Shown in pieces: positions 15,189 through 62,066 of a DNA stretch of 64,000 bases (positions within the stretch are counted from its first letter, which is position 1; each line of letters opens with the position of its first letter). A model generated the notes under the pieces. The model did no database searches. It was not told the origin of the DNA and saw only the letters and a list, made by a program, of their open reading frames with translations. The stretch covers positions 1 through 64,000 of the forward strand of contig CAYSHM010000005.1 in assembly GCA_964430885.1 (NCBI GenBank), in the 5' to 3' direction. The translations under genes were made by a program, and so were the position numbers. This DNA comes from an uncultured archaeon (GTDB lineage: Archaea; Thermoplasmatota; Penumbrarchaeia; JASLWR01).

Positions 15189-15226
15189 TTTGCATACCTC
15201 GGAGATCGTCCAATATATGTGCATAT

Positions 15227-24742: not shown

Positions 24743-26185
24743 TCACAACACCAGCAGTAAAACAGCTCCGCAGGTAAAGCCGAATATCCCTATGAACATT
24801 GACATTGGAAGTCCCGGAAGTATTTTGTTACGCTGGAGCATTTTGAGAGTGATTATAAAACCTATAATGATTCCGATCATAGAAAGAAGAAACATTATCA
24901 GGGGAGCTATTATCCCTACTTCATCAAAATACCTAACACCATATTGAAAAGAATGAGCCACAAGCATAGAGTAGAATACCAGATCTCCAATTCCCAGGTC
25001 CCAATCCTTAGCGCTGTATGTCAAACATTCCATTAGTTCCTCTGCCCCCATACCCTTGCCTCTGAGCAACCTTCCTCTCTTGGCAGTTGCGGAGCTGTCA
25101 ATGCCCCTGAAGGAAGAAACAAGCGGAATAATTGGCTGAAAACCGCCGTCATTATCCTTCAATTTTGGAGATGATGAGCCGGAAGCAGCGGATTTTGCTT
25201 TCCTTTTCACACGCCGCTGACGCTCAACCTGCTCCCTTTGAAACTTGACAAGCAGTTCCCTCAAAGTATCCTCAGCTCCGCCTATGACCCCCTCATAACC
25301 ACACTCCAAACATGAAACAATATCGTATTGTTCCACCCTTAATTTGGAGGAATGGCAGTAGGGGCACATAATCCCTTTCTCGCGGTAATAGGCAAAAACC
25401 GCCTCAGACCTCTTTCTCTGAAGATTTTTCTTTCCGGTTCTGTTCCTGCGTTCCTCTTCAGTCATATCTATTATGTTCTTGATAGGACCCTTTTTAACAG
25501 AATAAATATCATAGATCGAGAGACCAATAAGCATGAACATAACTGTCCAAGTAGGCATTATTACAGCAAGAAATGCACCCATCATTCCACTCATTACTAT
25601 CAGTGCCGCATTTCTCTTTACCTTATCGAAATGTATGGAGAGTATGGTATAACATAGAAGTATACCGCCAACAATTGAGAATATAAACACCGGCCATGAT
25701 ATTTCCTGGTGAAAAACCAGAAATAAGGGATCGGATGTTCTCAGTCCAGAATAAGTATGATATACCATATACCCCGAAGTGTAATACCTAATATCCTCTA
25801 TGAGTATTGACAGAAAGAAAAAGATTATTAGACCCCCGGAGAGTGAAAGAGCTCCTCCGAAGAGATACTGAATTGCCTGTTTCCTCTTATATTTGAACAA
25901 TAGGAATATTAAGAATCCTCCTATTATTGCCACACCCAAAAAAATGGATGCGTTGGCCAAACCCGCGGCTGCTGCTTCCTGGCCTCCGCCCTCTTCTGAA
26001 AAAACTGTGGCAGTTATGGTGAAATTCGAGATGAATGTGATCAGTACCAGGGTTGTTGCTATGAGCACCGTAACCATTATCGGCCTGACTAGCTGAATGC
26101 CATTAACCAATCTGTTTTTTATTTCCGACATGCTATTCTTACCCTTCAACTGATTTAATAATACCTTTTCGCTACATTTGAACAT
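24743..26185 (-). CDS. Presenilin-family intramembrane aspartyl protease
   Basis: IYDIYSV (TM6 Asp), LGIGDLVFYS (GxGD), LPGLP (PAL-like). The start may be the downstream MSEIK. Confidence 0.9.
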   Translation of the reverse strand: MFKCSEKVLLNQLKGKNSMSEIKNRLVNGIQLVRPIMVTVLIATTLVLITFISNFTITATVFSEEGGGQEAAAAGLANASIFLGVAIIGGFLIFLLFKYKRKQAIQYLFGGALSLSGGLIIFFFLSILIEDIRYYTSGYMVYHTYSGLRTSDPLFLVFHQEISWPVFIFSIVGGILLCYTILSIHFDKVKRNAALIVMSGMMGAFLAVIMPTWTVMFMLIGLSIYDIYSVKKGPIKNIIDMTEEERRNRTGKKNLQRKRSEAVFAYYREKGIMCPYCHSSKLRVEQYDIVSCLECGYEGVIGGAEDTLRELLVKFQREQVERQRRVKRKAKSAASGSSSPKLKDNDGGFQPIIPLVSSFRGIDSSATAKRGRLLRGKGMGAEELMECLTYSAKDWDLGIGDLVFYSMLVAHSFQYGVRYFDEVGIIAPLIMFLLSMIGIIIGFIITLKMLQRNKILPGLPMSMFIGIFGFTCGAVLLLVL

Positions 26186-29195: not shown

Positions 29196-32100
29196 GTGAT
29201 TAAAATGAATTGGTTTTACAGAATATCGAATCAGAGAGCATCAAAGATCTTATTGATCTCACTATCCTTGGCATTGTTCTTTTTCACATCTTTAGCGCCC
29301 CTAGGCACTATGTGGTCTGATACCGATCACTTGAAGGAAAACTCCAAATCCCATGGTCCAAAATCGTCCGGTGGGGAAATAGATATCCTTGCTGAATCCG
29401 ATGGAGGATTACTCCAGGCACCAGCACATCCTCTGAAAGAAGGGAATCTGAGACGCAGCATCTCGAGACCTTCTCCCACACCGTTTCCTTATCTGGAACG
29501 TTCCGATAACCGTCAGGGGGAGTTCAATCTTCTATGCATTAGGGTCCAATTTCAAGAGGATGATACTCCGCTTACTACTGGTAACGGCCTTATGGAGCCT
29601 GAACACAATGAATATTATTACAATGCCATATTCCAGCAGATGAGCGATTATTATAAAGAGGTTTCCTACGACCAGTTCAACCTAAATGCTTCAGTAACAG
29701 AAGAGATATTCACTGTGGACCACAATATGTCCCACTATGGTTCAAACGGTAATGAGGTGCAGAAGAACGTATATCTGATCAACGATACAATCGCAAAGGC
29801 AGACCCGTCCATTGATTTTTCTCAGTATGATTTCTTCATCGTTATACACGCCGGTTCAGGGGAGGAAACCGATATCAACAACGATTCACCCCACGATATC
29901 TGGTCAAACAATTTAGGTTTGTATCATTTCTGGGCCGTACTAGGCGGGCCCATACAAACAAATGACGGAAAGAGCATAAGTCAGATCAGCGTCATACCGG
30001 AAACCCAGAACCAAGACGGACTTTTCAGTCAGAACATTACTGGAGTGGCATGTCATGAGTTCGGACACAACCTGGGATTACCTGACCTATATGATGTGGA
30101 ATACCACTCGGATGGAATAGGAATTTGGGGTTTGATGTCCGCAGGACCAAATCTCAACGGCGGATTGACCCCTTCTCATTTCTGCGCCTGGTCAAAGATG
30201 TATCTTAATTGGGTAGACCCTATGATTATTGATACCAACCGAACCGATGTTTATATCAGAAATATTGAGGATTACAAGGATATTTACAAGATCGTATTGC
30301 CAGGCTCTAACGGAAAAGAATATTTTCTTCTGGAGAACCGACAGCGGAGAGGATTTGACAGATACCTTCCGGGCGACGGGCTTCTGATATGGCATATTGA
30401 TGAAAATATCATATTTCAGGATGTCGGTTGGGGATTCAACAGGCTTGAAGCAAACGATGTGAACACGTGGCCCAACCACAAGGGAGTGGACCTCGAAGAA
30501 GCCGGAGGAACACAGGAATTGGATATAATTGGAGATTACAACAGCGGAGACCACAGGGACCCATGGTTCGGAAAACCTGAAGGTTTCACTCCTTATACGG
30601 TCCCTAATACCTTCACCTATACCGATATCAATACCGAAATACACATCACAGACATATCCTGGTCATCCAACAACATGTCCTTTTCCGTGAATTTCAAGGA
30701 TAGGGCAATTGATCTTAAAAAGCCCAATATCAATACTACATCAGGGCTGCCAGGAGCTAGTATTTCCTTCCCGCTCCGCCTTTGGTCGAATAGGGCGAGA
30801 GAGAACAGCTATAACGACCGGATAACTCTTACTGTGGAAAGCGACCATTCTGATCTACTAGTATTAAGCCAGAATCCGGCTGAAATACCTTTGGATGCTG
30901 ACAATATCTTCGTCTATGCAAATCTGACCATCCCTTTGGATGCACACTATCAGGACCTGTACATATTCCATATTACCGCCGAATCGCAGGATGATGTTCA
31001 AGCGCCAACTGGGCTCACATTGACTGTAAGTGTTGAAGAGATACTTGAATTTGCACTTTCACCTATTGGGAATATCACACTTCTCCCTGGTGAGGCCAAC
31101 GTTCAAAACATAACGATAGCCTTCAACAACAGTGGAAATGATAGAGAAAGGTTCGATTTCAGCGTTGAACTATCCGATGAGGATTGGGAATGGGAATTGA
31201 GTCAGGAGCGCGTATGGCTGGAGCCGGACTCAGAACACAAAATTTATCTATACCTCTTCTCACCGGATAACTCCATCTTCAGCGATGAATGCGTATTTGA
31301 TATCTTCATGGAGCACTCAACCGGAACCCTTACAACCGGCTTCTCAGCTGAAGTGCTGCAGATATTCAACCTTACCATGGAAGTAGTGGATATAGCTGAT
31401 TATGCGACTCATTCAGACCCTTCCGTTTTGAACATATCTGTCAGAAACTACGGCAACGGTCAGGATAATATTTCAATAAGCCTGACCGGAACCAAGGCAG
31501 GTTGGACAATAGATTTCTCATCTGACTACCTGATAATACCAAGAAAAGGGATCCGATATTTCACCGTGACAATAACTCCTCAAAAACTCGCCCACTACAA
31601 TGATGATTTCCCCTTCACCGTAAAGGTCCACTCACAGGGCGGATTCAGCCTTGAAAGCGAAAATCTGGAAGTGAAGGTCAGCAAATTGGTGCTTCTGGAC
31701 CTAGAATGTGATAACAAAAATATCACATTGAGCACTAAAAAAAATACAGTTCAGGTCACAGTACAGCTATTGAACAAAGGAAATGTTGAGGATTACTATC
31801 AAATGAATGTGGTAATGCCCCCGGATGTTAAAATGAGTCTAGAGGGCATTAACAAGGACAACATTACCATACCTGCTTTCAATGACATCTTCATGGTGAT
31901 GCTGTTCGAATTCCCGGATGATATCACCGCAGGGCTTTATTACATAGATATCGATATTAGCTCAAGCAGACAATCAGACATTACCCTGGAAATGAGGCTG
32001 AACATTACAATTCCAAACATATATGAGCTCCAGGTCGATTTCAGCTCTGACAAGGATGGATTGGACCTATCAAAATCATCCTCTATAAAATATACTATCA

Positions 32101-32783
32101 CCGTTAATAACACTTCAAACCGGAATATCACTGTGATACTTGAGGACATAGGAGAATTAAAGGGATTCAAGATAACCATTCAGCCTAAGGAACTGACGCA
32201 TAAACTTGACATTTCCGAAGGGGGAGAATTCACCATATTGATCAGTTCAACTCCATCCAGTGAAATTAAGAATATCGATTTGTCATTGAAGGTTAGGGTA
32301 TTGGAAAATGGAAAAACCTACTCAGAGGATGAAACACTTAAGGTGACCCGAAGTATAATTACCAACGGGGATGACGATGATGATGATTCTGACAGTGGTG
32401 AAGGAAAAGGAGGATTAATGTCATCATGGATCATCTGGGCAGTAGCTGGAGCGATCTTGCTTTTCATCATCTGCTTGGTTGTTGTATTGGTTATCAAGAA
32501 GGGAAAAAAGAAGGACGAGGAACTTCTTCTAGATGATGAAATTGATGACCCTGGTTCATCGGAGGAAGCAACTGAGACTGAGGAGGTGGAGGTGGCCGAA
32601 GTGGAGATTGCCCCTGACACCCTGGAGATTAAAGAAAACGACGATACTCTCCACGAGGACTTTGCTTCAGAAGAAAATAATATGGTAAAGGCTTCAGATG
32701 ATGAAATAATTGACCAGAAAGAAAATATTTCAGGAAAAGAAGTATCAATACCAAAGCCCAAACCCCCAAAACCCCCTGAATAG
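29196..32783 (+). CDS. M6-family (immune inhibitor A-like) metalloprotease with Ig-like stalk, TM anchor and acidic tail
   Basis: HAGSGEE, HEFGHNLGLPDLYD, WGLMSAG, EYFLLENR, GLLIWHIDE. Signal peptide and C-terminal TM helix. Confidence 0.92.
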   Translation: MIKMNWFYRISNQRASKILLISLSLALFFFTSLAPLGTMWSDTDHLKENSKSHGPKSSGGEIDILAESDGGLLQAPAHPLKEGNLRRSISRPSPTPFPYLERSDNRQGEFNLLCIRVQFQEDDTPLTTGNGLMEPEHNEYYYNAIFQQMSDYYKEVSYDQFNLNASVTEEIFTVDHNMSHYGSNGNEVQKNVYLINDTIAKADPSIDFSQYDFFIVIHAGSGEETDINNDSPHDIWSNNLGLYHFWAVLGGPIQTNDGKSISQISVIPETQNQDGLFSQNITGVACHEFGHNLGLPDLYDVEYHSDGIGIWGLMSAGPNLNGGLTPSHFCAWSKMYLNWVDPMIIDTNRTDVYIRNIEDYKDIYKIVLPGSNGKEYFLLENRQRRGFDRYLPGDGLLIWHIDENIIFQDVGWGFNRLEANDVNTWPNHKGVDLEEAGGTQELDIIGDYNSGDHRDPWFGKPEGFTPYTVPNTFTYTDINTEIHITDISWSSNNMSFSVNFKDRAIDLKKPNINTTSGLPGASISFPLRLWSNRARENSYNDRITLTVESDHSDLLVLSQNPAEIPLDADNIFVYANLTIPLDAHYQDLYIFHITAESQDDVQAPTGLTLTVSVEEILEFALSPIGNITLLPGEANVQNITIAFNNSGNDRERFDFSVELSDEDWEWELSQERVWLEPDSEHKIYLYLFSPDNSIFSDECVFDIFMEHSTGTLTTGFSAEVLQIFNLTMEVVDIADYATHSDPSVLNISVRNYGNGQDNISISLTGTKAGWTIDFSSDYLIIPRKGIRYFTVTITPQKLAHYNDDFPFTVKVHSQGGFSLESENLEVKVSKLVLLDLECDNKNITLSTKKNTVQVTVQLLNKGNVEDYYQMNVVMPPDVKMSLEGINKDNITIPAFNDIFMVMLFEFPDDITAGLYYIDIDISSSRQSDITLEMRLNITIPNIYELQVDFSSDKDGLDLSKSSSIKYTITVNNTSNRNITVILEDIGELKGFKITIQPKELTHKLDISEGGEFTILISSTPSSEIKNIDLSLKVRVLENGKTYSEDETLKVTRSIITNGDDDDDDSDSGEGKGGLMSSWIIWAVAGAILLFIICLVVVLVIKKGKKKDEELLLDDEIDDPGSSEEATETEEVEVAEVEIAPDTLEIKENDDTLHEDFASEENNMVKASDDEIIDQKENISGKEVSIPKPKPPKPPE

Positions 32784-33066: not shown

Positions 33067-33996
33067 ATGCTGAACACCGCAACAAAGATAACCCTGGGCA
33101 GATTGATATTGGTTTTCCCTGTCCTCTTCCTGTTGTGGTTCCCGTCATACCGTATAATTGCCATAGTTCTATTTGTGGTCCTTTCCTTGATGGATGCCCT
33201 TGATGGTTATGTTGCCAGAAAGATGGACCAAGTTACCAGGATAGGTACCATACTGGATCCTGTGGCCGATAAACTGACAATTCTCGGTCTTCTGATAATC
33301 CTTCCTCTGATCTATCCTTACTTCCCGATATGGTTCTCATTGATAATTATCGGTAGGGATATAGTCATTGTTTTTGGATGGACAGTGCATTATTATCTTA
33401 CAGGTAATGCAATTATGATCCCCAGCAGATTAGGGAAGATCACCATGTTCATCCAATATACGACCATCAGTGTTGCCGTATTGATGGTTACCCTTTATGC
33501 CTATGATATAGATCCTTTGAGCAACAAGGTTTGGCTGGCTAATTTCATTCTGCTTGCAGTATCGTTCCTTACAATATTTACTTCCGTGGATTACATGTTC
33601 GCCCTTATTCATCATGGTTTTAAAAGTCACCCTGGAACTGTATCTCCAATGGACCTCGTAAAGGATAGGAGGGACCTGAGAAGAGCCAAGAAACGAAAAC
33701 CAATGGCGAGAAGAAGAATAATGAAGCATGTATACAAAAAGCGGAAGGAAGCGAAAGACCTTCCTCTGTATAAAGCTATCCTAATTGAGAATTTCCCAAA
33801 AAGACGTGTATGTCAGATATGCCAGGGAACTATGAGAAAGACCAGCGTTCTCAGATGCAGATGCGGCAGGTTTTTCCATAATGAATGTATTCAGAAGACT
33901 ATTGGGGAATGCCCCAGATGCGGAACCGTCATGCACCTTGATAAAAAAAGAATACCCAAAGAAGACATAATAAAAGGTCTGCTTAGAACTAGCTAA
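33067..33996 (+). CDS. CDP-alcohol phosphatidyltransferase (PgsA-like) fused to a C-terminal C4HC3 RING-like finger
   Basis: Intact signature DALDGYVARKMDQVTRIGTILDPVADK. C-terminal CQIC..CRC..H..C..CPRC. Confidence 0.88.
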   Translation: MLNTATKITLGRLILVFPVLFLLWFPSYRIIAIVLFVVLSLMDALDGYVARKMDQVTRIGTILDPVADKLTILGLLIILPLIYPYFPIWFSLIIIGRDIVIVFGWTVHYYLTGNAIMIPSRLGKITMFIQYTTISVAVLMVTLYAYDIDPLSNKVWLANFILLAVSFLTIFTSVDYMFALIHHGFKSHPGTVSPMDLVKDRRDLRRAKKRKPMARRRIMKHVYKKRKEAKDLPLYKAILIENFPKRRVCQICQGTMRKTSVLRCRCGRFFHNECIQKTIGECPRCGTVMHLDKKRIPKEDIIKGLLRTS

Positions 33997-34074: not shown

Positions 34075-37000
34075 TCAAGGCTGGGTCCTATCATTGCCGT
34101 ATATAGAATATCGGGTCCTCTCCCCGGATTTATTAATTTCTAATCCTTCATCCGGTTCTGAGTGATCTTTGGTGTTCTTTGTTTTTTGAAAACTGTCATC
34201 CCTGTTTGAAGAGTACATACCGAAATCGCTTCTTTTTCTTCTCCGCACATATAAGACAGCTAGAATCACACACAGAATCAGTACTAAAGCACAGGATATT
34301 ATCAATAACCAAAATGTCGATTCCACAAACCTTCCGGTCCTTCCATCAAGAAGGTTTTCAAGATCATCATCCAATTCACCCGGGGCGGAAGTGTTTTTAT
34401 TATCATTATCGGACCCAGGCAGCACTACAATATCCCTTATTAAACCGTATTCAAATCCTACAAATCCAAGAAGGGCCATCACTTTAAATTCGCCTGAATC
34501 TATTGGGGTGAAGTTCCAGTTAGCACCACCTTCAAAAGCATAATTAAACCTGCCCGTATCCGAAGCAATCAGGAACCATTTAACATATTGAGGTTTGGGA
34601 AAAGTACCATTGCAGTGAAGTTCAACTCGAACCTGACTACGCTTAGGTACTATACTGCCTGGTTTCAAGCTAAGATACCATTTTTCGTCCCATTCTTCCT
34701 TTGATAAAATTGTAATGTTCCGCTGGAGAATAATATTGACATCTTCTTCTCCCAAGAGGCCGCTTATTATGACTGTAATGTTGTAATTATCCGGTTTTGC
34801 CAGAGATAAAGTTATCGAGCCCCCATAATATTCATTGACAGTAGCACCTAATCGAACCTTCCATGTGAAATTACATTCGGCGGAATCCAAGGCGGATAGA
34901 TCTGATCGATTTATTAACACCGCACTGCAGTTGAAGGATCTATCTTCCAGACCGTAAGAGGGGCTGAACATTTCACCAATAATCCCGGGTTCGGACTCTC
35001 CAATAACTTGGACCAAATATCGGGCTATAGAAATTCCAGGAGGGCGCCAATCAGTGCCTTGGTCTGTGACATTCAATTGAACCAAAAATGAACCCTTGAA
35101 AGGAAAGCTGTAAGATAGATTCTCATTTATAATTGGACCCGCAAAGAAACAATGTGCATAAAGCTCATGGAACTCCTCGTTAAACAGAGAGATGGAGCCT
35201 GAAACATTGAAGATCCACCATGTAAATAGGAGCTGGTTGGATTCAGCATCAGCAGCTTCGGGCTGACACTTATGTAGGTCACCTACCTTAATAGTAACAT
35301 TCTCCAATTCCAATATCTCCGGAGGGGAATTCTCTGGAGCCTCTTCTATCCTGAATGAGAAGGGGGGCGAGGGGATTTGGGTTCCATTTTCATCTGTAAC
35401 CTCAACCATCCATTCATACTCATGACCAGTCCATAGATATTCAGGGGAGATATAGTGAGAACATTCATGGACCACATTGGGGGGATTCAAAGCTGAATAT
35501 GTGAAGTTATCAGTGTGGATAGAGAACCATTCTGGAAATTCCGCATGTAGATCATACAGATAGATCTCAACATGAAGATCATCACCATCCGCTTCCTCTA
35601 AATTATAATCCAGCTGGATCCCCGTCTGAGATACTGTATAGGGAAGTACTGCATCAGTTAATGGCGATTCGAGTGTTACGGAAGGCGGATAATCCACATC
35701 CACACGGAAGGTCCTAATCTCTGATTGAACCTGAACCTGCTGTCCATCTTCCCTCACATCCCTTACTTCCAACCACCATTCATACCAATTGGCATCATCC
35801 AGAGGGCTGGAGATGGTCAAGTTCAGACTGTCAGCTATATGATCGTGATCGGGACCTATCAAAGGTATGGGCCCGCTATCTGCCGTAGAGCCGAGTTGCA
35901 TTTTTCTCCAGAACAAATTTCCCGTGATATTGTCCCCGTCATGATCTATAACATCAAACTCAAGGGCCGGTGTCAGATCCTGGAATTCTATCCCATCCGC
36001 TGTGAGGAGATCGGTTACCGGAGGCCTGTTGGACATTTCTGTAAGATTGTTCTTCACATAGATATTGCTGGATTCGCCGGTGTCGTTGTGCGATGAGAAG
36101 ACAAGCCAAGTGGTTCCGTCTGAACACGGCATGGTAGCAGGGGATGCGTCATCGTCCAGGGATTCGGTCAGTAGGCATCCATCATCCATCAACCTGCTGT
36201 TTCTTTCAGAATTCAATTGGGTGAAATAAATATCACCGTTGGATTTGCCATCGATAGTCCTATCTGAATAATAGAAAAGCCTCGCCGATCCGTTAATTTC
36301 ACCAAGGGCCGGATCCTGAGACCCATGCTTAGAATCAACCAACCTGGTCGGTGCTTTCCAATCGCTCCATCCGGGTGAAGATGTTCCGAAAACCTCTTTT
36401 TTTCCATTCGGACCTGTTGACTGTGCCCAGAGTATCCACAGCATGCCATCCTCGGTCTGATAGTTATATGTCCCGTCCACATGAGAAAGAGTATCGCTGA
36501 CCTTGGTGGGATCATTGAAGGATTGTCCGTTATTGACTGAATAACTGAAATAAACTCCATTATCTGCACCGTCCATTGAAAAAACGCACCAGAGGGTTCC
36601 GTACCTGGTGCGGTGAAGATTTGGGTCCATGTGATTTGAACCAGGGAAAAGGTCCGTGATCATCTGCTCTTCACCCCATGAAGCACCGCTGTCTGTCGAA
36701 AGCCTGTAGCATACCCGCCATTTATCGTTAATTTTTCCCTGGTATGAAAGGACCCAAGTTCCATCATTGGATTGGGTAAAGGTTGGCGAGGCAATCTCAT
36801 CAAGCTGAGCCGTGAGCAGCGTCTCCGGGGTGCTCCAATTCTGGCCTCTGTCTCCGCTGATAGTCATTAAGATACTGCTCTCACCTTGAGATCGTTCAAG
36901 CCAAACAAGACATATATCACCATTGTCCAATTCAGCAACATCCGGTTCCAGGCTGTCAGCTTCTGTTGGGAATACCTCGGTCAGCATATGATCCACAAGG

Positions 37001-37932
37001 GGCAGGTCCAAATCCGGTCTTTCCAAGCCGTAGTAATCGAATATCCCGAAGAACATTCCTCTCCCGGCTGACTCCTTGAAGCTATCCTGATGGAGAAGCT
37101 GGTTATCGTCGTAATTGTCATGAAAGGCCACTTCTACCAAACATCCCGGCATATTCGTTTCCCTGAGAACGCACAAAGAGAAACCACAAATATCCTCATC
37201 CTTCAGAACCCCCCGATCCTGTGTTCCGCATTCCGCCACAAGGGGAGGATGAATATCATTGGCCAAAGCAAGATCCGCCGAGGGTGAACCACCGCCTGTG
37301 CCCGTATCCTGGCCGCCCCATATGGTCATTGTCCCTCTGGCTGACCCACCTCCTGCATTTGTATGGATGGATATGAATATGTCCCCGTTGACCTGATTTG
37401 CATATTCAGGGCGGATTGTGAGATCCTGATTGAGAGAACCAAAGCCTGAATAGCCCATTGCACCTCTTAGGTGACACCAGGCTCCCTCCTGCCATTTCGG
37501 CTGTCCGGATATACCGATGCTTGCATTCTTGTCCAGTTCCCTGGTCACGTGCAAGTTAGCTCCTGTGTGTTTATCAAGATAATCAAAAAGATAGGATGCT
37601 ATTTCAACTGTGAGCTCATCCTCCACAAGACCCCAGCAGTCCGGACGCTGATATACCCAGGAATTCCCGTTGTAATAGAGACCATGCCCCGGATCAATGA
37701 CAATGTCAATTCCATCCAGTGGTAAAGCGCGAACACTACACAGAGCCGGCGGGGATCCAGAGTAGAGGACGTAGGCATCGGTATGTAAACCTTTTTGAGG
37801 GAATGACGATGCAAGAAAAAAGAAAATTAAGATTAAAGAAATAAGCAAGCTGAGAGGGCATTTGCATTCCTTGGGTGATCTAATGGGCCTTAATATATGA
37901 GATATGAAAGAAATAATGTATTTTCTCATCAA
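34075..37932 (-). CDS. N-acetylmuramoyl-L-alanine amidase (Amidase_3) + BNR/sialidase-like propeller + Ig/PKD stalk + TM anchor
   Basis: IVIDPGHG, EDELT, DIFISIHTNA, VLRETNMPGCLVEVAFHDN. Asp-boxes SGDRGQNW, STDSGASW, SVNNGQSF. TM helix followed by RRRKR. Confidence 0.88.
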   Translation of the reverse strand: MMRKYIISFISHILRPIRSPKECKCPLSLLISLILIFFFLASSFPQKGLHTDAYVLYSGSPPALCSVRALPLDGIDIVIDPGHGLYYNGNSWVYQRPDCWGLVEDELTVEIASYLFDYLDKHTGANLHVTRELDKNASIGISGQPKWQEGAWCHLRGAMGYSGFGSLNQDLTIRPEYANQVNGDIFISIHTNAGGGSARGTMTIWGGQDTGTGGGSPSADLALANDIHPPLVAECGTQDRGVLKDEDICGFSLCVLRETNMPGCLVEVAFHDNYDDNQLLHQDSFKESAGRGMFFGIFDYYGLERPDLDLPLVDHMLTEVFPTEADSLEPDVAELDNGDICLVWLERSQGESSILMTISGDRGQNWSTPETLLTAQLDEIASPTFTQSNDGTWVLSYQGKINDKWRVCYRLSTDSGASWGEEQMITDLFPGSNHMDPNLHRTRYGTLWCVFSMDGADNGVYFSYSVNNGQSFNDPTKVSDTLSHVDGTYNYQTEDGMLWILWAQSTGPNGKKEVFGTSSPGWSDWKAPTRLVDSKHGSQDPALGEINGSARLFYYSDRTIDGKSNGDIYFTQLNSERNSRLMDDGCLLTESLDDDASPATMPCSDGTTWLVFSSHNDTGESSNIYVKNNLTEMSNRPPVTDLLTADGIEFQDLTPALEFDVIDHDGDNITGNLFWRKMQLGSTADSGPIPLIGPDHDHIADSLNLTISSPLDDANWYEWWLEVRDVREDGQQVQVQSEIRTFRVDVDYPPSVTLESPLTDAVLPYTVSQTGIQLDYNLEEADGDDLHVEIYLYDLHAEFPEWFSIHTDNFTYSALNPPNVVHECSHYISPEYLWTGHEYEWMVEVTDENGTQIPSPPFSFRIEEAPENSPPEILELENVTIKVGDLHKCQPEAADAESNQLLFTWWIFNVSGSISLFNEEFHELYAHCFFAGPIINENLSYSFPFKGSFLVQLNVTDQGTDWRPPGISIARYLVQVIGESEPGIIGEMFSPSYGLEDRSFNCSAVLINRSDLSALDSAECNFTWKVRLGATVNEYYGGSITLSLAKPDNYNITVIISGLLGEEDVNIILQRNITILSKEEWDEKWYLSLKPGSIVPKRSQVRVELHCNGTFPKPQYVKWFLIASDTGRFNYAFEGGANWNFTPIDSGEFKVMALLGFVGFEYGLIRDIVVLPGSDNDNKNTSAPGELDDDLENLLDGRTGRFVESTFWLLIISCALVLILCVILAVLYVRRRKRSDFGMYSSNRDDSFQKTKNTKDHSEPDEGLEINKSGERTRYSIYGNDRTQP

Positions 37933-38038: not shown

Positions 38039-38566
38039 CTATAGGTCATTTTCAAACACAAACATTCCATTTTCAAGTCTTCGGCATTTTTTCCAGGGTA
38101 TCACACGAGCGTTCATAGCCACATATACTCCGGGCCTCATTGACCTAACAGCACCCACGGCCATACCCAGGTTGAAGGATGCTTCGCTTCCCTTGAAGCG
38201 CTCCGGTAGAAAGGAACCTGTTAGAATTATGGTTTTTTTCTCCAAACTGCTCAAAACCTGAGCTGTATCGAGAATGGAATCTGTACCATGGGTGATAATG
38301 AAATGATTAGATTCACTCTCATGGATGAAATCTCTAAGTTCGATCCGATCATCTAGGGTCATATCCAGGCTGTCCTTCTGGAACATCATAAAATATTGGA
38401 AGTATCCTGCCGGTGCATTCACCTTACCGAGTATTCTCTCAAAAGCCGGTTCGGTAATAAGGAATGAATAACCCCCTTTTTTCAATGGATAATCCTTATC
38501 TATTGACCCACCGGTTTGAATGAGAACTATCTTATCGATGTTTTTATTGAAATTGGTCCCGCACAT
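38039..38566 (-). CDS. Short asparaginase-domain protein
   Basis: TGGSIDKDY, KDSLDM, ITHGTDS, ILTGS, ASFNLG. ATG 38566 has a GGTGG SD. Confidence 0.85.
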   Translation of the reverse strand: MCGTNFNKNIDKIVLIQTGGSIDKDYPLKKGGYSFLITEPAFERILGKVNAPAGYFQYFMMFQKDSLDMTLDDRIELRDFIHESESNHFIITHGTDSILDTAQVLSSLEKKTIILTGSFLPERFKGSEASFNLGMAVGAVRSMRPGVYVAMNARVIPWKKCRRLENGMFVFENDL

Positions 38567-38737
38567 GACAAACACCACCTGACACAATTTTAGATACAAA
38601 GAGGAATTATTATTTCAGCCTTAATAAAATATTGCCCTTGAAACCCTTATTTGACTATCTGATAAAGGCAGAAATTCTATATATATGTAGTTCTTTTCTA
38701 AAAAATACAATTTTTAAAAAATGCTGTTGGTGTTGAC

Positions 38738-41700
38738 ATGGCCAGTAAAAAAAAGCATCTGAAAAGATTTCTTAAAAGCAAGAAAAGCACGTTATTGAAA
38801 GCCTCGGTGATCCTAATCACTGTGATATTCCTTTCCCTATTGATCCCTGAAAAGGTCGGTATAAGGGAATACCAAAGCAAGATCATCAGGCATAGACCGG
38901 ATACCCGACTTGATGAAAGAACTGCAGAGGATCCTGGAAATGGAGGGATGCTACCCTATTTCCATTATGTGGACAGCAGTGTAAATACCGCAAACGGAAA
39001 CTTATTCATTTCTGAGAACGATATCTCTCGGCCCTCACTCCCCCAGGCATTGACTTTCAGCAGGTCCTACAATTCCATGAACTCCCTGTCAACTACATCG
39101 GTTGGTTACGGATGGACCCATTCTTACAATTCATATCTCATGCCGGAAGAAGGTATGGTCACCCTATTCAGGGAAGATGGGGCAGTGTTCAGTTTCAATG
39201 AGAACGGTACTGAATTCGATACTCCGCCTGGACTTGATGCCTTATTGACCAAGAACGGCACAAATTTTCTTCTGATGTACAAGAATGGAATGACCTTCAC
39301 CTATGACCGCAACGGCGTTCTGAGGAACCTTTACGATCGGAGCGGGAATAAACAGAACCTCAACTACAAGGACGATGTTCTAACACATGTCAAGGACATT
39401 AATGAACAGTCCCTTGAATTCAGCTATGACGCAAGTTCAAGGCTTATCAAGGTGAGCGACGGGACCAGAGATGTCACATTCGAGTACGACGGAGGGGGAC
39501 GGCTGATCAAGGCAACTGATGCATCGGGCAACTCTACAAATTACTACTACGGCCCTAACAACCAGCTGAAGGTAAGAGAGGATAGAAGGGGCAAAGCCGT
39601 TTATTATGAATATGACCAGGACAGCAGAGCCTATGAGATAGGTAAAGCAGAAGGCGATCTTCTCTTCAAATCCCAGACAAGCCATTATCTGAAATATTCA
39701 ATATCCTATGTCGAATCTGGGGCCGAATTGACCAATGCCATGGGACATGTATGGAATATCAATCTCGATACAGATGGCAGGATTTCAGGCATAACCGATC
39801 CTTTGGGATACGGCACCACAGTGACATTCGATGAGAATTGGAATGTTGATTCAGCAGAGGACCAGATGGGCAGTACCCAGCATTTCGAATACGATAATTA
39901 CAACAATATGGTCACCTGGACCGATCCCCTTGGTAATGCAAAGGCCTATACTTATGAAATGTTCACAGTGGATTTCTATTACTGCCCCCCTGCCACAATG
40001 ACCGACGAGAACGGCAAGACCTGGACCTACAGCTACAACTCCCAGGGCCGGCTTCTTGAAGATAAGGACCCAAGCGGCAATTCAACCCTGTACACATGGA
40101 CAGAAAACGGGCTTCTGGAGAGCATCACCTATCCTACCGGTGCCCGGACCGATTATGAATATGACAATTCAGGCAATCTTATCAGCACAGCAATGCCCAA
40201 CGGACTGTTGGTGGATTATTCCTACGATTCCCTTGGCAGAATGATCAAGCAGAAAAAGGGAAACCGGGTAACGACTCACTCATACGACCTGAACAATCGA
40301 CTTTACAGAACCAATTACCCTGACAACAGCTATGAGGTTTACGAATACGACGCCCTTGGCACAATTATCAAGAAGAGAGATCAGAACGGCGGGATCCATG
40401 AATATGACCACGGGGAGAAGGAGGTAATAATTGAAGAGGTTTTGAACGGAACGGAGATCTACAATGCCAGGGTGAACAAGATTGGAGATATTCAGAAGGA
40501 GCAGAACGCCAACGGGGACATCACCTCCTATTATTATGACCCAATGGGAAGACTGACCATGATAAAGTATCCTGATAAGACCTATGACAGTTTCAGCTAT
40601 GATGGTGCCGGCAGAATGACCTCGGCAAAGGACCAGATGGGTTTCACAACCACCTATGAGTACGATGCAATTGGGAGGCTGGAAACCGAGAGGAACCACC
40701 TGGGAAGCACTGTAACCTACAGCTATGATGCAGCAGGGCGCATGACCGGGTTCAATGATCTGAATGGAGGTCAGTGGACCTATGAATATGATGCAGTGGG
40801 CAATATGATCAAGGAAACCGACCCAGCTGGATACTCCCAGAACTATACCTATGACGCTGTGGGAAACCGCATCTCCCGGGAGGATAAGAACGGTAACATG
40901 TGGGAGATGGAGTATGACGGGATGAACCTTATGACCGAGATGAATCATCCAGACGGCGCTGTGGAAAGCTGGTCCTATGATCTATACGGTGATGTTACTG
41001 AGCATGTGGATGCCGATGGAGAGAGATGGGAATTCGAGTACGACAGCATGGGCAACATGATCAAGGAAATAGACCCCCTGGGCAATTTCAAGGGCTACAG
41101 CTATGACAGGCTGGGAAATATGCTGTCCTACAGGGATGAGAGAGGAAACAGAATAAGATACCAATATGATGATCTCGGAAACATGATTTCAATAACCGAT
41201 CCCCTTGGACGAATCACCGAATACGAGTACGACGGGGAGGGAAACATCATCGAGATGGAAAGGCCCGACGGGGAGGAGTTCACCTTCACATACGACAGTT
41301 TCGGAAGGGTTCTTTCACAGAAAACCCCCTGGAGAACCCTGAGTTACGGATATGATGCAGGAGGAAACCTCATCTCAAAAACCGATCCCTGCGGGAATGC
41401 GGTAAGAATGGAATATGATCACAACGGATTGATCCTGAAATACACCGACGAGGAGGGGTATTCAAGCAATTACAGATATGATTCCGACGGAAATCTCATT
41501 AGGTATGATGACCGCAAGGAAGGCATTCACTGGTGGGAATACACAAGGGATGCAGTGGGCAGGGTTACCATGGTGGAGGATCCTGCCGGGAACAGCTGGA
41601 GATACAGCTATGACGGCGAAGGCAATATAGTAAGGATAGTGGATGCAGCGGGCAATCCTGCCAGCTACAGCTATGACCATATGGGGAATATCCTATCGCA

Positions 41701-50100: not shown

Positions 50101-51932
50101 TTCTTTCTGCAGCTGATTGGGGAATTGGCGTTGACCATATCTGGTACTCAAAGGATGACGGATCCACATGGATGACCTATACGGGACCCATCCATTTCAG
50201 CGGTGACAGCATACTGATAGGGGCAATTGACAAGTTGGGCAACAATGAAAGTGCCAGAAAGATAATGCTCATGAGCGACAATACTGCTCCTGACACCTCC
50301 TATTCCATATCTGGCAATATCATAGGCCGTTCACCCTTGATCGTGGAATCAGGAAGCAAGCTTCAGCTGCGGGCTTCCGACAACAGCCAGATCAAAAGTA
50401 TATGGTATACCTTGGACGGGACAAGTTTTCATACCTACCAGGGACCAATTGATCTAATTGACAATATCTCAATAATCTACGGTGCAGTTGATATATTCGG
50501 CAATAACGAAACAGGCAAAAGCCTGGAGATAGGTGTCAGAAATAATGTGGCCTCTGCTCCATTTGTTATATCGGTTTCACCCTCACCCGGGTCCACTTCA
50601 ATACCTGTACTTCCAAGGATAGTTGTCAAGTTCAGCAGGACAATGAACACCAGTTCTGCTGAAAAGGCCTTTTCAATGGACGTCCCCGGGTCCTTCAGCT
50701 GGGATGCATCTGAACGGAACATGACCTATATTCTGGGTGAAGAACTGGGTTACAAATGCTTCTATACCATTGTGGTGTCAAAGGAGGCAATGAGCCCTCC
50801 TGGAAATAAAATGGTAGCGGATTTCATCTGGAGGTTCCAGACCAAGGAATATTCCGGCGGGGACAGTATGCAGACATTCACAGATTCCCTAGCAGTGGGT
50901 GAAGGGCTCGCCCTTAATGCAGAATACAGTGCCCTAGGAAAGATCATTCTGGAACCCTTGGCCAGGTCTGAGATAGGGAGCACCTACCCTTCACCGGCAG
51001 CGGATATGATGCTATTGGGAGCCTGGTTGGCACAGCCTACTCCTGGAAACGCTTTGGAGCATATGGATCTCAGTGTGGATTATGCCAACCTAAATGCACC
51101 GTCCCTGGATATGAACAATGTCAGCATCTACTATTTCGACGGTGCCAGCGAGACATGGGAAGAATGTTCCTCATTGAGCAATGATCCTGCCAGCGGTGTT
51201 GTTGAAGGAAGGGGGACTGAATTCTCCGCCTATGCAGTATTGACAAATCTCAAAGGCAGTTCTGGCAACGGTAGCCAGCCCTCTGGATCTGACCTCGATC
51301 CAATACTTGAAACCTCAAAGGACGATAAGAGTTCATACACTGGACTGACCATAGTTGTAATAGTAGTGACCCTGATCTTACTTGTCATTATGTTCTTTGT
51401 GCTGTCCAGAGGGGGAAAGAAGGAGGGGAGCGATTACGAGGAAGAATTTGAGGAGGACGCTGATGAGAAGGATGATGGACAAGAGGAGATCCTGGAAGAA
51501 GAGGTAGAGGACGAGGAGGGTTTTGAGGAAGGTGTGGAGAAAGAACGACTTGGAGAAGATGATGACGGGGAAGCTGTAGAGGTTCAGGAGGGATTTGTGA
51601 AGGAGGCGAACCCGGAAGTAGAAGAGGCAGGCAAAAAAGAGGAGGGGAATGATATGGAAGCTGAGGAAGGGGGGACGGCAGAGGATGAAGATCAGTCTGC
51701 AGAGGTAGTAGAACCTGCTGAAGTCGAAGAGGAGGAGGCGCAGGGGGAATCGGAGAGTGAAGCCGCTGAACCGGCCAAGGTAGATACAGCTGATGAAATT
51801 GTTGAAGAACCTAGAAAAGAATCCCCCGAGGAAGTTCCAGGTCAAAAGGACAAAAAAGCTGATCCGCTCACTGATGAAGATGATGACGAATTCGATGAGC
51901 TGTTGTCAGATCTGGACATGGACGATTTCTAA
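47184..51932 (+). CDS. Large adhesin-like surface protein: beta-helix/NosD, five OmpL47-like Ig repeats, Big_5-like domain, TM anchor, acidic tail
   Basis: GDGSPGNPYVIEN, GGNYWDNY..DGFGDTP..DNYPL, repeated IWYSLDG..Y.G.F..A.D..GNNE, VISVSPSPGST..VKFSRTM. ATGA overlap with the upstream gene. Confidence 0.88.
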   Translation: MRPNKGIKNLFNISFISIVLLISGLAVGLYPLISEFGTAELADPGNLAPHSVIDITSDAGFNQSNGVTHGDGSPGNPYVIENLSIDAGGGNGISISATSANYVIRNCHVYNATGYGIHLIPSSGNVSVMNCDINNTQDQALRMIGTVDNFLMDRIDVWNIHNGDGIYINPNAEKVMLENITSTNTSGVAFNLQGNVMEYSMKNINIHNVSNDRGIYSYNYEQNGKFIVNNITINKTSSDGAYLYVANKDFIGDRINLLNLPSGWGFYIQGNWGEESATLSNVYVYNFTSGEYAVYVTSFRNAHIDNMTVIDMAEIGAYALNIYDIDNGNITVRDFYGDNCRDGLRIYYCDNANIDLKRIDITETFRGFYINDCDGSQVLFNNIMLTEYSYHGIALSGMDDATVTVINSEFVGVGGFSGDGAISSSFGNDYTNYIIDNFTARDHYWYSIDLDLDQGSNVSITNSTFRNIGSYGGINIDGDYDPSYVNSTISNCLFDTMNTPIYLRNHISSVHNNKMENVGSDAMEVNKMDGSVLYENTIQNASNNWQGRGIEVVSTENITIKGNTILDMITGIRVWEGCRNNRIYNNVFLANELNAQDQTLGNNSWNATYGEGGGNYWDNYTGVDDFSGEGQNEAGADGFGDTPFTELLNIVDNYPLMNIPIWLDTFYPVSELNTTNDTYIKWENGSFVMYFIPDVTVFTIEAMDYGSGVEHIWYSLDGLTYQEYSGEFTLEAGAENLYFRAEDFNNNNESLHHMILKGDGDEPILEPALGLPNHMDGDDIFVRNSTEINFKAVDEGAGLDRIEHSLDGGSTWVEFPGLFSIENSISDYMIRAVDMLGLTAAKTYQLVVDSSKPLTDIAIDHYLGEDPRYVRSYALVTLEAADDGLSGNGSGIGKIWYSLDGGQRFETYNGSFHLPAWCHQVYYGALDNVGNNETGSLLDVFVDNEDPVTSIRALGDYYLTENKLYMTDNDTLLLSAADWGIGVDHIWYSKDDGSTWMTYTGPIHFSGDSILIGAIDKLGNNESARKIMLMSDNTAPDTSYSISGNIIGRSPLIVESGSKLQLRASDNSQIKSIWYTLDGTSFHTYQGPIDLIDNISIIYGAVDIFGNNETGKSLEIGVRNNVASAPFVISVSPSPGSTSIPVLPRIVVKFSRTMNTSSAEKAFSMDVPGSFSWDASERNMTYILGEELGYKCFYTIVVSKEAMSPPGNKMVADFIWRFQTKEYSGGDSMQTFTDSLAVGEGLALNAEYSALGKIILEPLARSEIGSTYPSPAADMMLLGAWLAQPTPGNALEHMDLSVDYANLNAPSLDMNNVSIYYFDGASETWEECSSLSNDPASGVVEGRGTEFSAYAVLTNLKGSSGNGSQPSGSDLDPILETSKDDKSSYTGLTIVVIVVTLILLVIMFFVLSRGGKKEGSDYEEEFEEDADEKDDGQEEILEEEVEDEEGFEEGVEKERLGEDDDGEAVEVQEGFVKEANPEVEEAGKKEEGNDMEAEEGGTAEDEDQSAEVVEPAEVEEEEAQGESESEAAEPAKVDTADEIVEEPRKESPEEVPGQKDKKADPLTDEDDDEFDELLSDLDMDDF

Positions 51933-52016: not shown

Positions 52017-53984
52017 TTAGTTATCATTGGCCCCATTATGCCAGGGGTCATAGTTAGGCTGGGTCTCCAGGGGTATAGCAGGCCTGAAAGCCGGGTCCCC
52101 GTACATTGTGAAGAAGGTTACCTCTCTCCAGTCAACAGTGTCCTTGGGTTCAAAGGGAGTCGGACTGTTGTTGGGACCATAGGCCATGTACCTGTTCTCG
52201 CACCATTGGACCGCCTTCCCAGCAGTTCCGTGTTCTTCAGGATGGTTGAGTATACCGTCCCAGACAAAGGCATACCAGGCATCGTTGTGATCCCATTTGT
52301 GGTCGTCCTCGATTAAGCCGTATTCTGCCCGAAGAGCGGGTATGTCCTGTCCTATGTTGGAGTAGCTTATCTCTGTGGCCCCTATCAATACGGCGGGTCC
52401 TGCTGAAAGGTAGTTAAGTGTGAAAAGGTTCTCGAAATTGACATCGCTCTGGGGCTGGGTGCCGGGCCCGTGACCGTAGATCTTACCGTTAAGGCATGAG
52501 ACAAAGAAAGCTATCTGAGGCGGGACATTCATGGTCTGGCAATCCCCATACCTAAGTGCGTGCTCATCCCCATTTGGTCCTCTCACCCTTATGCCGTAAA
52601 GAGAACCAGTATCCGAACCATGGCCTCTATAAGCTACGTATCCAGATCCCTGGCATATCTCTATGATATTGGTCTCTTTGGAATCCACAACACCGTCGGC
52701 CAACTTGACCCCCGTTCCCGAGGGACCCCAGTAATCATAAGTGAAACCGGCATCATCATAGTCCTTGCAGATCCATCTTGCAGGGGTAGCCTGCATCCTC
52801 TTGTAGGTAATATCATAACCTGAAAAGGAGGCCCCGTGCGTCCGCCAGTTCTTTTCATGAGGTCCTCCGGCAATATCCCTGTAGTTTACCGGCACTGTAT
52901 CGGCAAAATCCTCAATAAACAGTGATTTGGAAAGCTGATTGGAAGCAAGAGATGCATCAAATTGGATCAGTCGGCCCACGGCAGCATCCTGAGTGTAGGG
53001 GTCATCATCAAGAAATCCGTATATAATATCAGAATTGGTGATCTCACCCTGGCCGCCTATCTGGGTCAGGAATTGTGGTACTGCAGAAGCACTGCCTACA
53101 ATACATACATATTCAGCAGGGCCATACATTGAAGAAACCTTTCTGATCATGTCATAATATCCCATTGCACGCCTGTTCTGGGATAACTCCATATTTAGGG
53201 TCCAATCAACCTGCTGGATGGGAGGTGCGTCGGTTATGACGAAGGCGTCGTGATGGACCGCCAGCTCTCCGGTCAAAACCGATAGAGCGGGACAGAACCA
53301 GGCATCATCGTAGGAATCGTAATCCGGTGTGCTCTGGTTTAGATGTTTAAGGGAAACATCAAAGGGATTGGTAGCGATAATGTAATTGGCTGGAATGCCT
53401 AGGGCTTTCATTTCCTTCCAGGCTGATTCCTGATCAGGATATGTCATTCTGCCGGATATGAGGGCCATGTTGGTGTTCTTGGCTACTGCGGTGGCCCAGA
53501 GTGCTTCGGAATATGATGAAACAGTGATAACTCCGTCAAACCCTATGAAATTGGACACTGCATTCGATGTGAGTGGCAGATAATGCTCTTCTTTGACTGG
53601 AGATAAACCCGCTTCTGAAAGCTGGGAGTTCACTGAATTGAATAACGCTTCTGAATTTACAAACAACAATTTAGCCCGGTCAGTTTTCCAATTGGTCAGT
53701 GTGTATATCTGCTGGGATGATAATTTCCCCTCCTGGTCAAGGATCATGAAGGGATTGTAAACTTCACCCCTGTTTATAAGTGAACTGAGACAGGCTACAG
53801 AAAGCATGTCATCGGGGTTCTTGGGATATTCAGTTATGACCATATAATCCGAAGGGAGCTCTATTGTTGGCTGATATAGGGGCCTGTCTTCTTCTTTAGG
53901 CTGGGAAAAATAAAATATCAATCCTCCGGTAACCAGTACAGACACCAGGGCTACAGCTGTAATTTTCTTGTATTTGGCGTTCAA
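52017..53984 (-). CDS. C25-family (gingipain-like) cysteine peptidase with N-terminal membrane anchor
   Basis: YVCIVG..VP, SDIIYG, AVGRL, YRGHGS (His), FVSCLNG (Cys), MYGDP. TTG start with AGGAGG SD. Confidence 0.8.
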   Translation of the reverse strand: MNAKYKKITAVALVSVLVTGGLIFYFSQPKEEDRPLYQPTIELPSDYMVITEYPKNPDDMLSVACLSSLINRGEVYNPFMILDQEGKLSSQQIYTLTNWKTDRAKLLFVNSEALFNSVNSQLSEAGLSPVKEEHYLPLTSNAVSNFIGFDGVITVSSYSEALWATAVAKNTNMALISGRMTYPDQESAWKEMKALGIPANYIIATNPFDVSLKHLNQSTPDYDSYDDAWFCPALSVLTGELAVHHDAFVITDAPPIQQVDWTLNMELSQNRRAMGYYDMIRKVSSMYGPAEYVCIVGSASAVPQFLTQIGGQGEITNSDIIYGFLDDDPYTQDAAVGRLIQFDASLASNQLSKSLFIEDFADTVPVNYRDIAGGPHEKNWRTHGASFSGYDITYKRMQATPARWICKDYDDAGFTYDYWGPSGTGVKLADGVVDSKETNIIEICQGSGYVAYRGHGSDTGSLYGIRVRGPNGDEHALRYGDCQTMNVPPQIAFFVSCLNGKIYGHGPGTQPQSDVNFENLFTLNYLSAGPAVLIGATEISYSNIGQDIPALRAEYGLIEDDHKWDHNDAWYAFVWDGILNHPEEHGTAGKAVQWCENRYMAYGPNNSPTPFEPKDTVDWREVTFFTMYGDPAFRPAIPLETQPNYDPWHNGANDN

Positions 53985-57051: not shown

Positions 57052-57161
57052 TAGTAAAAATATTTAATGATTAATTACCAGATGTTTGAATTATTATCCT
57101 GATACTATTAAAATCAAAACCGGAAGAAAGGGAAATAACCACAACAAGAGGGCGAATAAAA

Positions 57162-61991: not shown

Positions 61992-61996
61992 AAAAA

Positions 61997-62027: not shown

Positions 62028-62066
62028 AAACAATAATTCAATATCAAACAATTAGGAGAAATCGTA

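Follow-up and report, generated by a model that had tools for sequence, protein, structure and literature searches.

The gene described here lies in a 64,000-nucleotide stretch of DNA from an uncultured archaeon (contig CAYSHM010000005.1, positions 1 to 64,000; the whole stretch is called the window below) and encodes a large, predicted membrane-anchored protein with an Amidase_3 domain near its N-terminus. An earlier sequence-only reading had pointed to 37030..37715 as encoding a catalytically intact peptidoglycan amidase on an archaeal surface stalk. This segment is contained in a single open reading frame (ORF) on the minus strand, with a product of 1285 amino acids (aa); the database protein P0002 is the 1284-aa form, read from the ATG at 37929. 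The parts of the protein follow one another in the order signal-like segment, Amidase_3 domain, BNR propeller, beta-sandwich domains, membrane helix and basic tail (coordinates in Table 1). Amidase_3 and BNR_2 were the sole matches in a Pfam scan of the protein reported to an expectation value (E) of ≤0.1, and the amidase domain was found to be single-copy in the window when its profile was run against the six-frame translation.

The Amidase_3 match (E 2.1e-24; 86.9 bits against a cut-off of 27) covers profile positions 1-172 of 174 and, as a sequence match, is far above chance level. The residues expected of an active site were located and their codons checked: H83 in DPGHG (37684-37686), E104 in VEDE (37621-37623), H190 in SIHTNA (37363-37365) and E267 in LVEVAF (37132-37134). 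H83, E104 and H190 we take to be the zinc ligands and E267 the catalytic Glu, following the CwlV and AmiC literature. A sequence search of the PDB returned eight amidases at E ≤ 0.01 (Cwp6, 5j72; CwlV, 1jwq; 4rn7; AmiC2, 5emi; CwlD, 7rag; AmiB, 8c0j and 3ne8; LytH, 7tj4), and in the alignments to CwlV, Cwp6 and 4rn7 the motifs DPGHG, SIHTNA and LVEVAF fell on the matching conserved motifs of the solved enzymes. Residues 60-320 were modelled with AlphaFold from a 27-row alignment (mean predicted local distance difference test score (pLDDT) 80.4; predicted template modelling score 0.83), and the model was compared with the PDB by using Foldseek, which gave 54 matches at E ≤ 0.001. The best of these were 4rn7 (E 3.5e-16) and 1jwq (E 8.7e-16), with a template modelling (TM) score on the target of 0.84 for both. 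Among the matches listed, ranks 1-33 (25 rows) were all N-acetylmuramoyl-L-alanine (MurNAc-L-Ala) amidases or endolysins, and zinc carboxypeptidase-type folds appeared only from rank 35 on. Profile, the presumed three zinc ligands with the catalytic Glu, and predicted fold together place the domain in Amidase_3. In an alignment of 208 Amidase_3 domains the four residues H, E, H and E were retained in 207, 208, 207 and 207, respectively. The catalytic set is thus intact and the fold is that of the family, as the earlier reading had held: the four motifs are present, align to those of solved amidases and are kept in ten of ten members of the protein's own family, described below.

Three features separate the domain from the short classical amidases: an 8-residue insert after GHG, an insert of about 38 residues between the second and third zinc ligands, and a Gly-rich loop of 10 additional residues. 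The longer insert carries the motif G-I-S-G-Q-P-K-W-Q-E-G-A-W-C, is absent from the classical short amidases and shares G-x-S-G-x-P-K-W-Q-E with the relatives called long-form below. It was modelled at low confidence (model residues 76-92), and the matches to solved structures break there. Three cysteines, C99, C153 and C235 (nucleotides about 37228-37638), are invariant in the family; C153 lies inside the insert, and the three might include a disulfide pinning the insert to the core.

The Gly-rich loop follows the strand after the third zinc ligand, which we take to be the position at which AmiA, AmiB and AmiC carry their inhibitory helix. It is a 10-residue insert relative to CwlV and was assigned by DSSP as short, non-helical coil (model residues 147-157). 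Identity with the AmiA/B/C enzymes was rejected on NCBIfam scores of 17.9, 14.6 and 15.1 bits for AmiA, AmiB and AmiC (cut-offs 400, 532 and 700), and identity with the germination amidase CwlD on an equivalog score of 50 bits (cut-off 221.55). Regulation of the AmiA/B/C type was set aside on the same low scores and on the coil at the inhibitory-helix site, so that sequence and model point to an enzyme that is not of the activator-dependent type. Because an inhibitory helix of this type and a recognised wall-binding domain are both lacking, the amidase is probably constitutively active.

The region after the amidase was modelled from a 9-row alignment (residues 310-1240; mean pLDDT 70.2). The model contains a propeller (about 318-628; pLDDT mostly 75-90), a low-confidence linker, about five beta-sandwiches (about 656-1171), a second low-confidence linker and a single long helix (1204-1234). 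BNR_2 matched residues 346-535 at E 3.1e-13, and together with the propeller in the model this bears out the BNR propeller of the earlier reading. The best compact Foldseek match of the propeller was a sialidase of Porphyromonas gingivalis (8gn6_B; root-mean-square deviation (rmsd) 4.7 over 355 columns, 17% identity), followed by other sialidases; the top-ranked matches, GhpA, SorCS2 and alpha-2-macroglobulins, were generic matches of repeated beta-domains (TM 0.08-0.16). By sequence, the propeller matched solved structures weakly (virginiamycin B lyase-type repeats, E 2e-05; sialidase Asp-box, E 0.01), the matches to sialidases spanning a single Asp-box. Asp-boxes lie at residues 359 and 412, and one to four were found per protein across the family; with six predicted blades and these boxes the propeller would be of the sialidase type. 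The catalytic residues of GH33 sialidases comprise the arginine of the RIP motif within an Arg triad, a Tyr/Glu nucleophile pair and an acid/base Asp. The motif [FYW]R[IV]P was found in none of the ten family members in a motif scan, and for lack of such a motif the propeller may act in binding and not as a sialidase; a glycan-binding role is what we infer for it.

For the part beyond the propeller, the earlier reading had proposed an Ig/PKD stalk. A stalk of beta-sandwich domains is indeed predicted by the model; the assignment to PKD specifically did not hold for the protein itself, in which no PKD domain was called by Pfam at E ≤ 0.1. The precomputed Pfam annotation lists PKD (PF00801 or PF18911) in four of the eight full-architecture homologues (P0003-P0010). 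Sixteen of the 22 N-x-S/T sequons of the protein lie within residues 641-1215, the region containing the stalk.

A hydropathy scan identified exactly two hydrophobic segments, residues 26-44 and 1209-1227, with RRRKR after the second, and the model places a helix over the latter, so that the proposed membrane anchor stands. A C-terminal helix is present in seven of the eight homologues; the eighth, P0010, is cut by the end of its 3147-bp contig. A comparable N-terminal hydrophobic segment is likewise found in seven of the eight, the exception, P0004, starting directly at the amidase domain. If the N-terminal segment is a cleaved signal peptide, the protein would have the layout of a type-I membrane protein with the amidase farthest from the anchor. 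The amidase is N-terminal, as had been claimed; that it is also distal holds only on this assumption.

Relatives were collected in several searches. A word-indexed search returned the eight proteins of the same architecture (40-50% identity), one of them ending at a contig end, and also P0011, a 2222-aa amidase from a 'Thermoplasmata archaeon' with other downstream domains. A scan of one genome per species gave 79 loci, of which the sole one with the full architecture, L001, comes from a 'Thermoplasmatota archaeon' and is 44% identical to the window protein over residues 29-1121. The remaining loci, 78 in number, belong to bacteria, chiefly Bacillota; they are short-form and at most 38% identical in the best segment. 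The family alignment contains nine rows (36 pairs for each region); counts over ten members add L001. Mean pairwise identity in the nine members was 0.80 for the amidase, 0.53 for the propeller and 0.38 for the stalk. The amidase head is therefore the most constrained part of the protein, which argues for catalysis and against decay. The G+C content at third codon positions (GC3) of the gene is 0.451, within a range of 0.37-0.58 in the window; this typical value and the divergence within the family argue against recent import, and recent horizontal transfer was rejected on composition and family conservation.

No sequence outside the family reached more than about 45% identity to the amidase domain. 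An exhaustive search of 1.84 billion representatives gave 6339 matches at E ≤ 0.001, 534 at E ≤ 1e-10 and 10 at E ≤ 1e-30; many of the matches at E 1e-20 to 1e-36 cover the whole domain including the insert and are referred to here as the long-form clade. In a Pfam scan of 20 long-form proteins, fusions to PG_binding_1 (P0284), a D-Ala-D-Ala carboxypeptidase of family S11 (P0295), GH18 (P0286) and a subtilase of family S8 (P0292) were found, as well as to PA14, F5/8 type C, Kelch, CARDB and FG-GAP domains. Those fusions that relate to murein speak for murein as the substrate of the clade. An NCBIfam scan of 70 long-form relatives revealed no taxon-specific sorting signals or anchors; in two relatives, P0332 and P0281, the C-terminus consists of a membrane helix with a basic tail, as in the window protein. 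Each of the giant relatives P0281 and P0282 has a pair of amidase domains, joined to F5/8 type C, Big_7, GHL10 glycosidase-like or BNR_2 domains and to PKD or CarboxypepD_reg repeats. Both amidases of P0281 are long-form; the second of P0282 groups with the short-form domains in the IQ-TREE analysis.

Phylogenies were calculated from the amidase domains. In a FastTree tree (289 domains, reduced to 208 by a 4-mer redundancy filter) the family formed one clade (support 98) that was joined to P0011, P0282 and P0332 (support 98) inside the long-form group. A quick IQ-TREE run on 66 rows (10 family members, 6 candidate sisters, 32 long-form and 18 short-form domains) gave support of 99 for the family, 97 for the P0011/P0282/P0332 clade and 99 for the long-form group, their mutual order not being resolved. 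The sequence-only reading had looked to a phylogeny for the bacterial donor, and this expectation failed: no recent or identifiable donor emerged, and the domain sits in a conserved archaeal family within the long-form clade. No bacterial donor could be identified from the genome, plasmid, phage, short-protein, exhaustive and Atlas searches. The tblastn matches in plasmids (126 records) and phages (56 records) were all below 60% identity (best 32.5%), the best match among shorter proteins had E 2.8e-15, and the Atlas look-ups yielded only weak (sub-0.9) leads to bacterial clusters of mixed phyla. Judged by its sequences, the family is a conserved archaeal one and not a fresh transfer.

An archaeal host is indicated by several genes in the window. 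An ArlJ/FlaJ gene (E 6.6e-105) is encoded in the same 64 kb; all organism names among 120 relatives listed for a FlaI-like ATPase are Thermoplasmata, Thermoplasmatota or Euryarchaeota; and a presenilin homologue and AMMECR1 are also encoded. No tRNA, rRNA or Rfam RNA family was found in the window. ArlJ, the relatives of the ATPase and the label of L001 support assignment of the host to the Thermoplasmatota; the archaeal host of the earlier reading is borne out, and the bacterial host named as its counter-case is not. The host is an archaeon without murein or a bacterial-type wall. In the sections drawn on here of a paper on viruses of Poseidoniales, a Thermoplasmatota order, no murein or pseudomurein pathway is reported for the order, and a viral amidase homologue is termed 'puzzling' (PMC11706807).

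The amidase gene has its own AT-rich upstream spacer of 106 bp. Directly upstream on the same strand, a 186-aa ORF matches only the N-terminal domain of asparaginase (E 2.5e-18); it represents a truncated gene or else a short form that stands alone. Downstream and convergent lies a gene for a CDP-alcohol phosphatidyltransferase with a weak C-terminal match to zf-RING_2 (residues 249-285, E 2.9e-4), an unusual pairing. One gene away and divergent is a gene for an RHS/YD-repeat protein with DUF6531 and 20 RHS repeat stretches, in the C-terminal 499 aa of which no Pfam toxin domain was matched. It is followed by two further genes, each overlapping its predecessor by 4 bp; this three-gene block has a GC3 of 0.52-0.58, against 0.37-0.49 in most other genes, and may have been acquired. 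Several giant beta-helix, CARDB or PKD proteins are encoded near the amidase gene. A metalloprotease of family M6 (immune inhibitor A-like) and a peptidase of family C25 (gingipain-like) fit a cell that digests polymers extracellularly. At the end of the window lies a set of genes similar to those for archaeal type IV pili or archaella, with two small proteins that have N-terminal hydrophobic segments, the second also with a zinc ribbon. The neighbours of the L001 orthologue are a copper ATPase, a redoxin, an S8 subtilase and ArgRS; the subtilase, which adjoins the orthologue (11831..16198, minus strand; 1455 aa, with CARDB, PKD and Big_7), is a large exported hydrolase. The company of other large exported hydrolases is the only context that recurs.

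Table 1. Parts of the amidase gene and neighbouring genes in the window.
Feature	Coordinates	Strand	Basis or remarks
Whole coding sequence	34075..37932	-	TTG at 37932 gives 1285 aa, ATG at 37929 gives 1284 aa; stop codon 34075-34077
N-terminal region, residues 1-59: basic stretch, then hydrophobic segment 26-44	37756..37932	-	hydropathy scan
Amidase_3 domain, residues 77-297	37042..37704	-	Pfam, PDB alignments, AlphaFold, Foldseek, codon check
Long-form insertion LDKNASIGISGQPKWQEGAWCHLRGAMGYSGFGSLNQD, residues 133-170, between zinc ligands 2 and 3	37423..37536	-	domain alignment
Gly-rich loop WGGQDTGTGGGSPSAD, residues 205-220	37273..37320	-	CwlV alignment, DSSP
Predicted six-bladed beta-propeller, sialidase-like BNR fold, residues ~311-630	36043..37002	-	Pfam, model, Foldseek
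Predicted stalk of about five beta-sandwich (Ig-like) domains, residues ~656-1171	34420..35967	-	model, PKD in homologues
C-terminal transmembrane helix, residues 1209-1227	34252..34308	-	hydropathy 3.42; model helix 1204-1234
Predicted cytoplasmic tail, residues 1228-1285, beginning YVRRRKRS	34078..34251	-	positive-inside rule
Presenilin / signal-peptide-peptidase homologue	24743..26185	-	480 aa; Presenilin E 2.5e-24
M6 metalloprotease	29196..32783	+	1195 aa
CDP-alcohol phosphatidyltransferase	33067..33996	+	
ORF with asparaginase N-terminal domain	38039..38599	-	186 aa
RHS/YD-repeat protein	38738..44635	+	1965 aa
Second gene of the RHS block	44632..47187	+	PKD
Third gene of the RHS block	47184..51932	+	beta-helix/NosD, OmpL47-type barrels, Big_5
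Whole RHS block	38738..51932	+	GC3
C25 peptidase	52017..53984	-	655 aa
Pilus- or archaellum-like cluster	56236..64000		
FlaI-like ATPase	57162..59111		
T2SSF-like membrane protein	59104..61158		
Small protein	61368..61991		N-terminal hydrophobic segment
Small protein	62067..62600		N-terminal hydrophobic segment, zinc ribbon
ArlJ	62786..63970	-	runs off the window

As far as sequence and structure prediction reach, the proposal of an intact amidase on an archaeal surface stalk is supported. The protein is read here, with a probability of roughly 0.6, as a membrane-anchored ectoenzyme that cleaves bacterial murein, chiefly harvesting it as food. After export, one C-terminal helix would anchor the protein in the membrane, and the beta-sandwich stalk and sialidase-fold propeller would hold the zinc-dependent N-acetylmuramoyl-L-alanine amidase away from the cell. 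Outside the archaeal cell, the enzyme would hydrolyse the amide that links MurNAc to the stem peptide in bacterial murein. The murein would be taken as food from wall debris, muropeptides or bacteria stuck to the cell, with the other large surface hydrolases of the neighbourhood acting in parallel; a second use might be to damage bacterial walls that are exposed. Export, signal cleavage, murein as the substrate, constitutive activity and the ecological purpose are here inferred. Harvesting of debris and muropeptides is tentatively ranked above contact killing because there is no wall-binding domain and because an outer membrane would bar a tethered enzyme; harvesting from attached bacteria is a possible variant.

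Several points weigh against this reading. It is family membership only that suggests murein as the substrate of this protein. No recognised peptidoglycan-binding domain was found in it by Pfam at E ≤ 0.1, and, by analogy with enzymes treated in the parts of a review (PMC6736417) used here, it may handle fragments only. The insert of about 38 residues, which has no solved counterpart, could gate or alter the active site. The N-terminal segment could be a signal anchor instead of a signal peptide; left uncleaved, it would place the amidase at the membrane. A conserved operon partner was sought and rejected: the neighbourhoods in the window and around L001 differ, and context yields no shared partner.

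The same stalk might instead present the amidase as a contact-dependent antibacterial weapon that lyses touching bacteria for competition or predation, perhaps together with the RHS/YD neighbour. We consider this unlikely, if a serious candidate. Archaeal peptidoglycan hydrolases can kill bacteria, according to the portions of Strock et al. 2025 (PMC12352652) used here, and an enzyme without an inhibitory helix would suit the purpose. The 1965-aa RHS/YD protein with DUF6531 stands divergent one gene away, but this neighbour is not conserved, no RHS gene being found in the 20.5 kb covered at the L001 locus, and its C-terminal 499 aa are without a recognisable toxin domain. The Ig-like chains match GhpA, the grappling hook of a predatory bacterium, at Foldseek rank 1, but with a TM score of only 0.12-0.13 and an rmsd of 97, as expected of a generic match of repeat domains. 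A tethered enzyme also cannot cross an outer membrane, which would leave only Gram-positive or damaged cells exposed. Less probable still is a lineage of Thermoplasmatota that grazes bacteria by contact, with stalked, constitutively active amidases as 'teeth' that would open the walls of bacteria held at the surface, stem peptides and cell contents then being taken up; the sialidase-fold propeller and the neighbouring RHS-type and protease surface proteins may be involved. If true, this would be cell-bound rather than secreted archaeal predation on bacteria.

Murein itself might be the wrong substrate. The domain could trim an amide-linked glycoconjugate of the cell's own envelope or another polymer, with the propeller as partner glycosidase or lectin, in keeping with its identity of at most about 45% to any non-family sequence, the insert of no known structure beside the active site, the lack of a wall-binding domain and the varied sugar-related domains (F5/8 type C, GHL10, BNR) fused to close relatives. 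To our knowledge, every characterised member of Amidase_3 cleaves MurNAc-L-Ala; in addition, the full catalytic set is conserved, fusions to PG_binding_1 and to a D-Ala-D-Ala carboxypeptidase domain occur within the long-form clade, and the consulted part of PMC11706807 reports no murein or pseudomurein pathway for Poseidoniales, all of which makes this substrate a distinctly improbable one. A protein that is mainly an adhesin, its amidase head binding murein so as to attach the cell to bacteria or particles while catalysis is unimportant, would resemble large adhesins in its propeller, Ig-like domains and anchor and would be at home among the many other giant surface proteins of the window. 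A pure binder would be free to lose E267, but the catalytic residues are invariant in ten of ten members and the amidase is the most conserved part (0.80), so that this role is very improbable. That the contig is bacterial or chimeric and the protein an ordinary bacterial autolysin is scarcely credible: the source is of metagenome type and the window is without rRNA or tRNA genes, but ArlJ and the FlaI-like ATPase lie in the same 64-kb window with the presenilin homologue and AMMECR1, the database entries P0002 and P0161 (the ATPase) each name a contig of 409,974 bp, the orthologue L001 and the relative P0011 are labelled Thermoplasmatota and Thermoplasmata, respectively, and the GC3 of the amidase gene is uniform with that of its neighbours.

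With harvesting of murein retained as the preferred reading, the protein can be compared with known systems. The short autolysins and endolysins of known structure, CwlV (1jwq), the Clostridioides difficile amidase 4rn7, Cwp6 (5j72), CD27L and PlyPSA, share the fold of the archaeal domain (TM on target 0.82-0.84 for 4rn7, 1jwq and CD27L; lower in the multi-domain chains Cwp6, 0.25, and PlyPSA, 0.49), the His-Glu-His zinc site, the catalytic Glu and the lack of an inhibitory helix. They are only 23-25% identical to it in structural alignments and lack the inserts of 8 and about 38 residues before the third ligand and the Gly-rich loop. They are held by wall-binding repeats of the SLH, Cwp, SH3 or choline-binding type, whereas the archaeal protein is tethered by a C-terminal membrane helix, in a host that has no murein. 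Rv3717/Ami1 of mycobacteria (4lq6, 4m6g) resembles the window domain in being an Amidase_3 enzyme with neither a wall-binding domain nor the AmiA/B/C helix and gave some of the longest structural alignments to the model (251-253 columns; TM on query 0.62-0.63; identity 16-18%). Weak NCBIfam matches to the Rv3717 family were found in 40 of the 70 long-form relatives, and none in the window protein itself at E ≤ 0.1. Rv3717 differs in being small and in acting on the cell's own muropeptides, as stated in the consulted part of the review (PMC6736417). Three other giant amidase proteins, P0011 (annotated by NCBI as a partial N-acetylmuramoyl-L-alanine amidase), P0282 and P0332, are about 40% identical to the window protein in the amidase domain and likewise carry a long-form amidase near the N-terminus of a very large surface protein. 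The downstream domains differ from those of the window protein in P0011 (beta-helix/NosD and PKD) and in P0282 (a second amidase, F5/8 type C, BNR_2, fn3 and PKD).

Among archaeal enzymes, the comparison is with those of Strock et al. 2025. In the sections of that paper (PMC12352652) used here, modular peptidoglycan hydrolases are reported from 175 of 3,706 archaeal genomes, prominently in Thermoplasmatota; two M23 enzymes that are secreted proved lethal to a bacterium, and the choice between scavenging and killing is left explicitly open. The two, Woldo and Danwoldo from Halogranum salarium, are like the window protein archaeal, from murein-cleaving enzyme families and exported or exported-looking; they were tested as secreted, soluble M23 enzymes, whereas the window protein is a predicted membrane-anchored Amidase_3. 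The definition used in the survey calls for a catalytic Pfam domain with at least one wall-binding Pfam domain, and Amidase_3 is included as a catalytic domain in its S10 list; the present family would be excluded because it has no recognised wall-binding domain. Among the papers listed in literature searches on Amidase_3 in archaea and Thermoplasmatota and on archaeal peptidoglycan degradation, none was on this family. The call of the amidase domain itself is not new, because NCBI annotation already names P0011 an amidase, and archaeal murein hydrolases have been published; the novelty lies in describing a conserved family that is apparently tethered to the membrane and combines a sialidase-fold propeller with a long-form catalytic head, the insert of which, beside the active site, is structurally undescribed.

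Whether archaea fight or eat bacteria, and how, is a recent open question. The survey of Strock et al. is the one systematic treatment and, in the sections used here, counted only hydrolases with wall-binding domains and tested only secreted enzymes. Uncultured Thermoplasmatota appear to keep an intact murein amidase under strong constraint on an anchored stalk, and such proteins would escape the definition of that survey. If the enzyme is active, the known anti-murein repertoire of archaea would grow, and a cell-bound mode would be suggested, by feeding on wall debris or by contact lysis. Bacterial cell-wall material is a large pool of marine organic nitrogen, and an active amidase of this family would provide a defined enzyme with which the use of bacterial wall material by abundant heterotrophic archaea could be tested.

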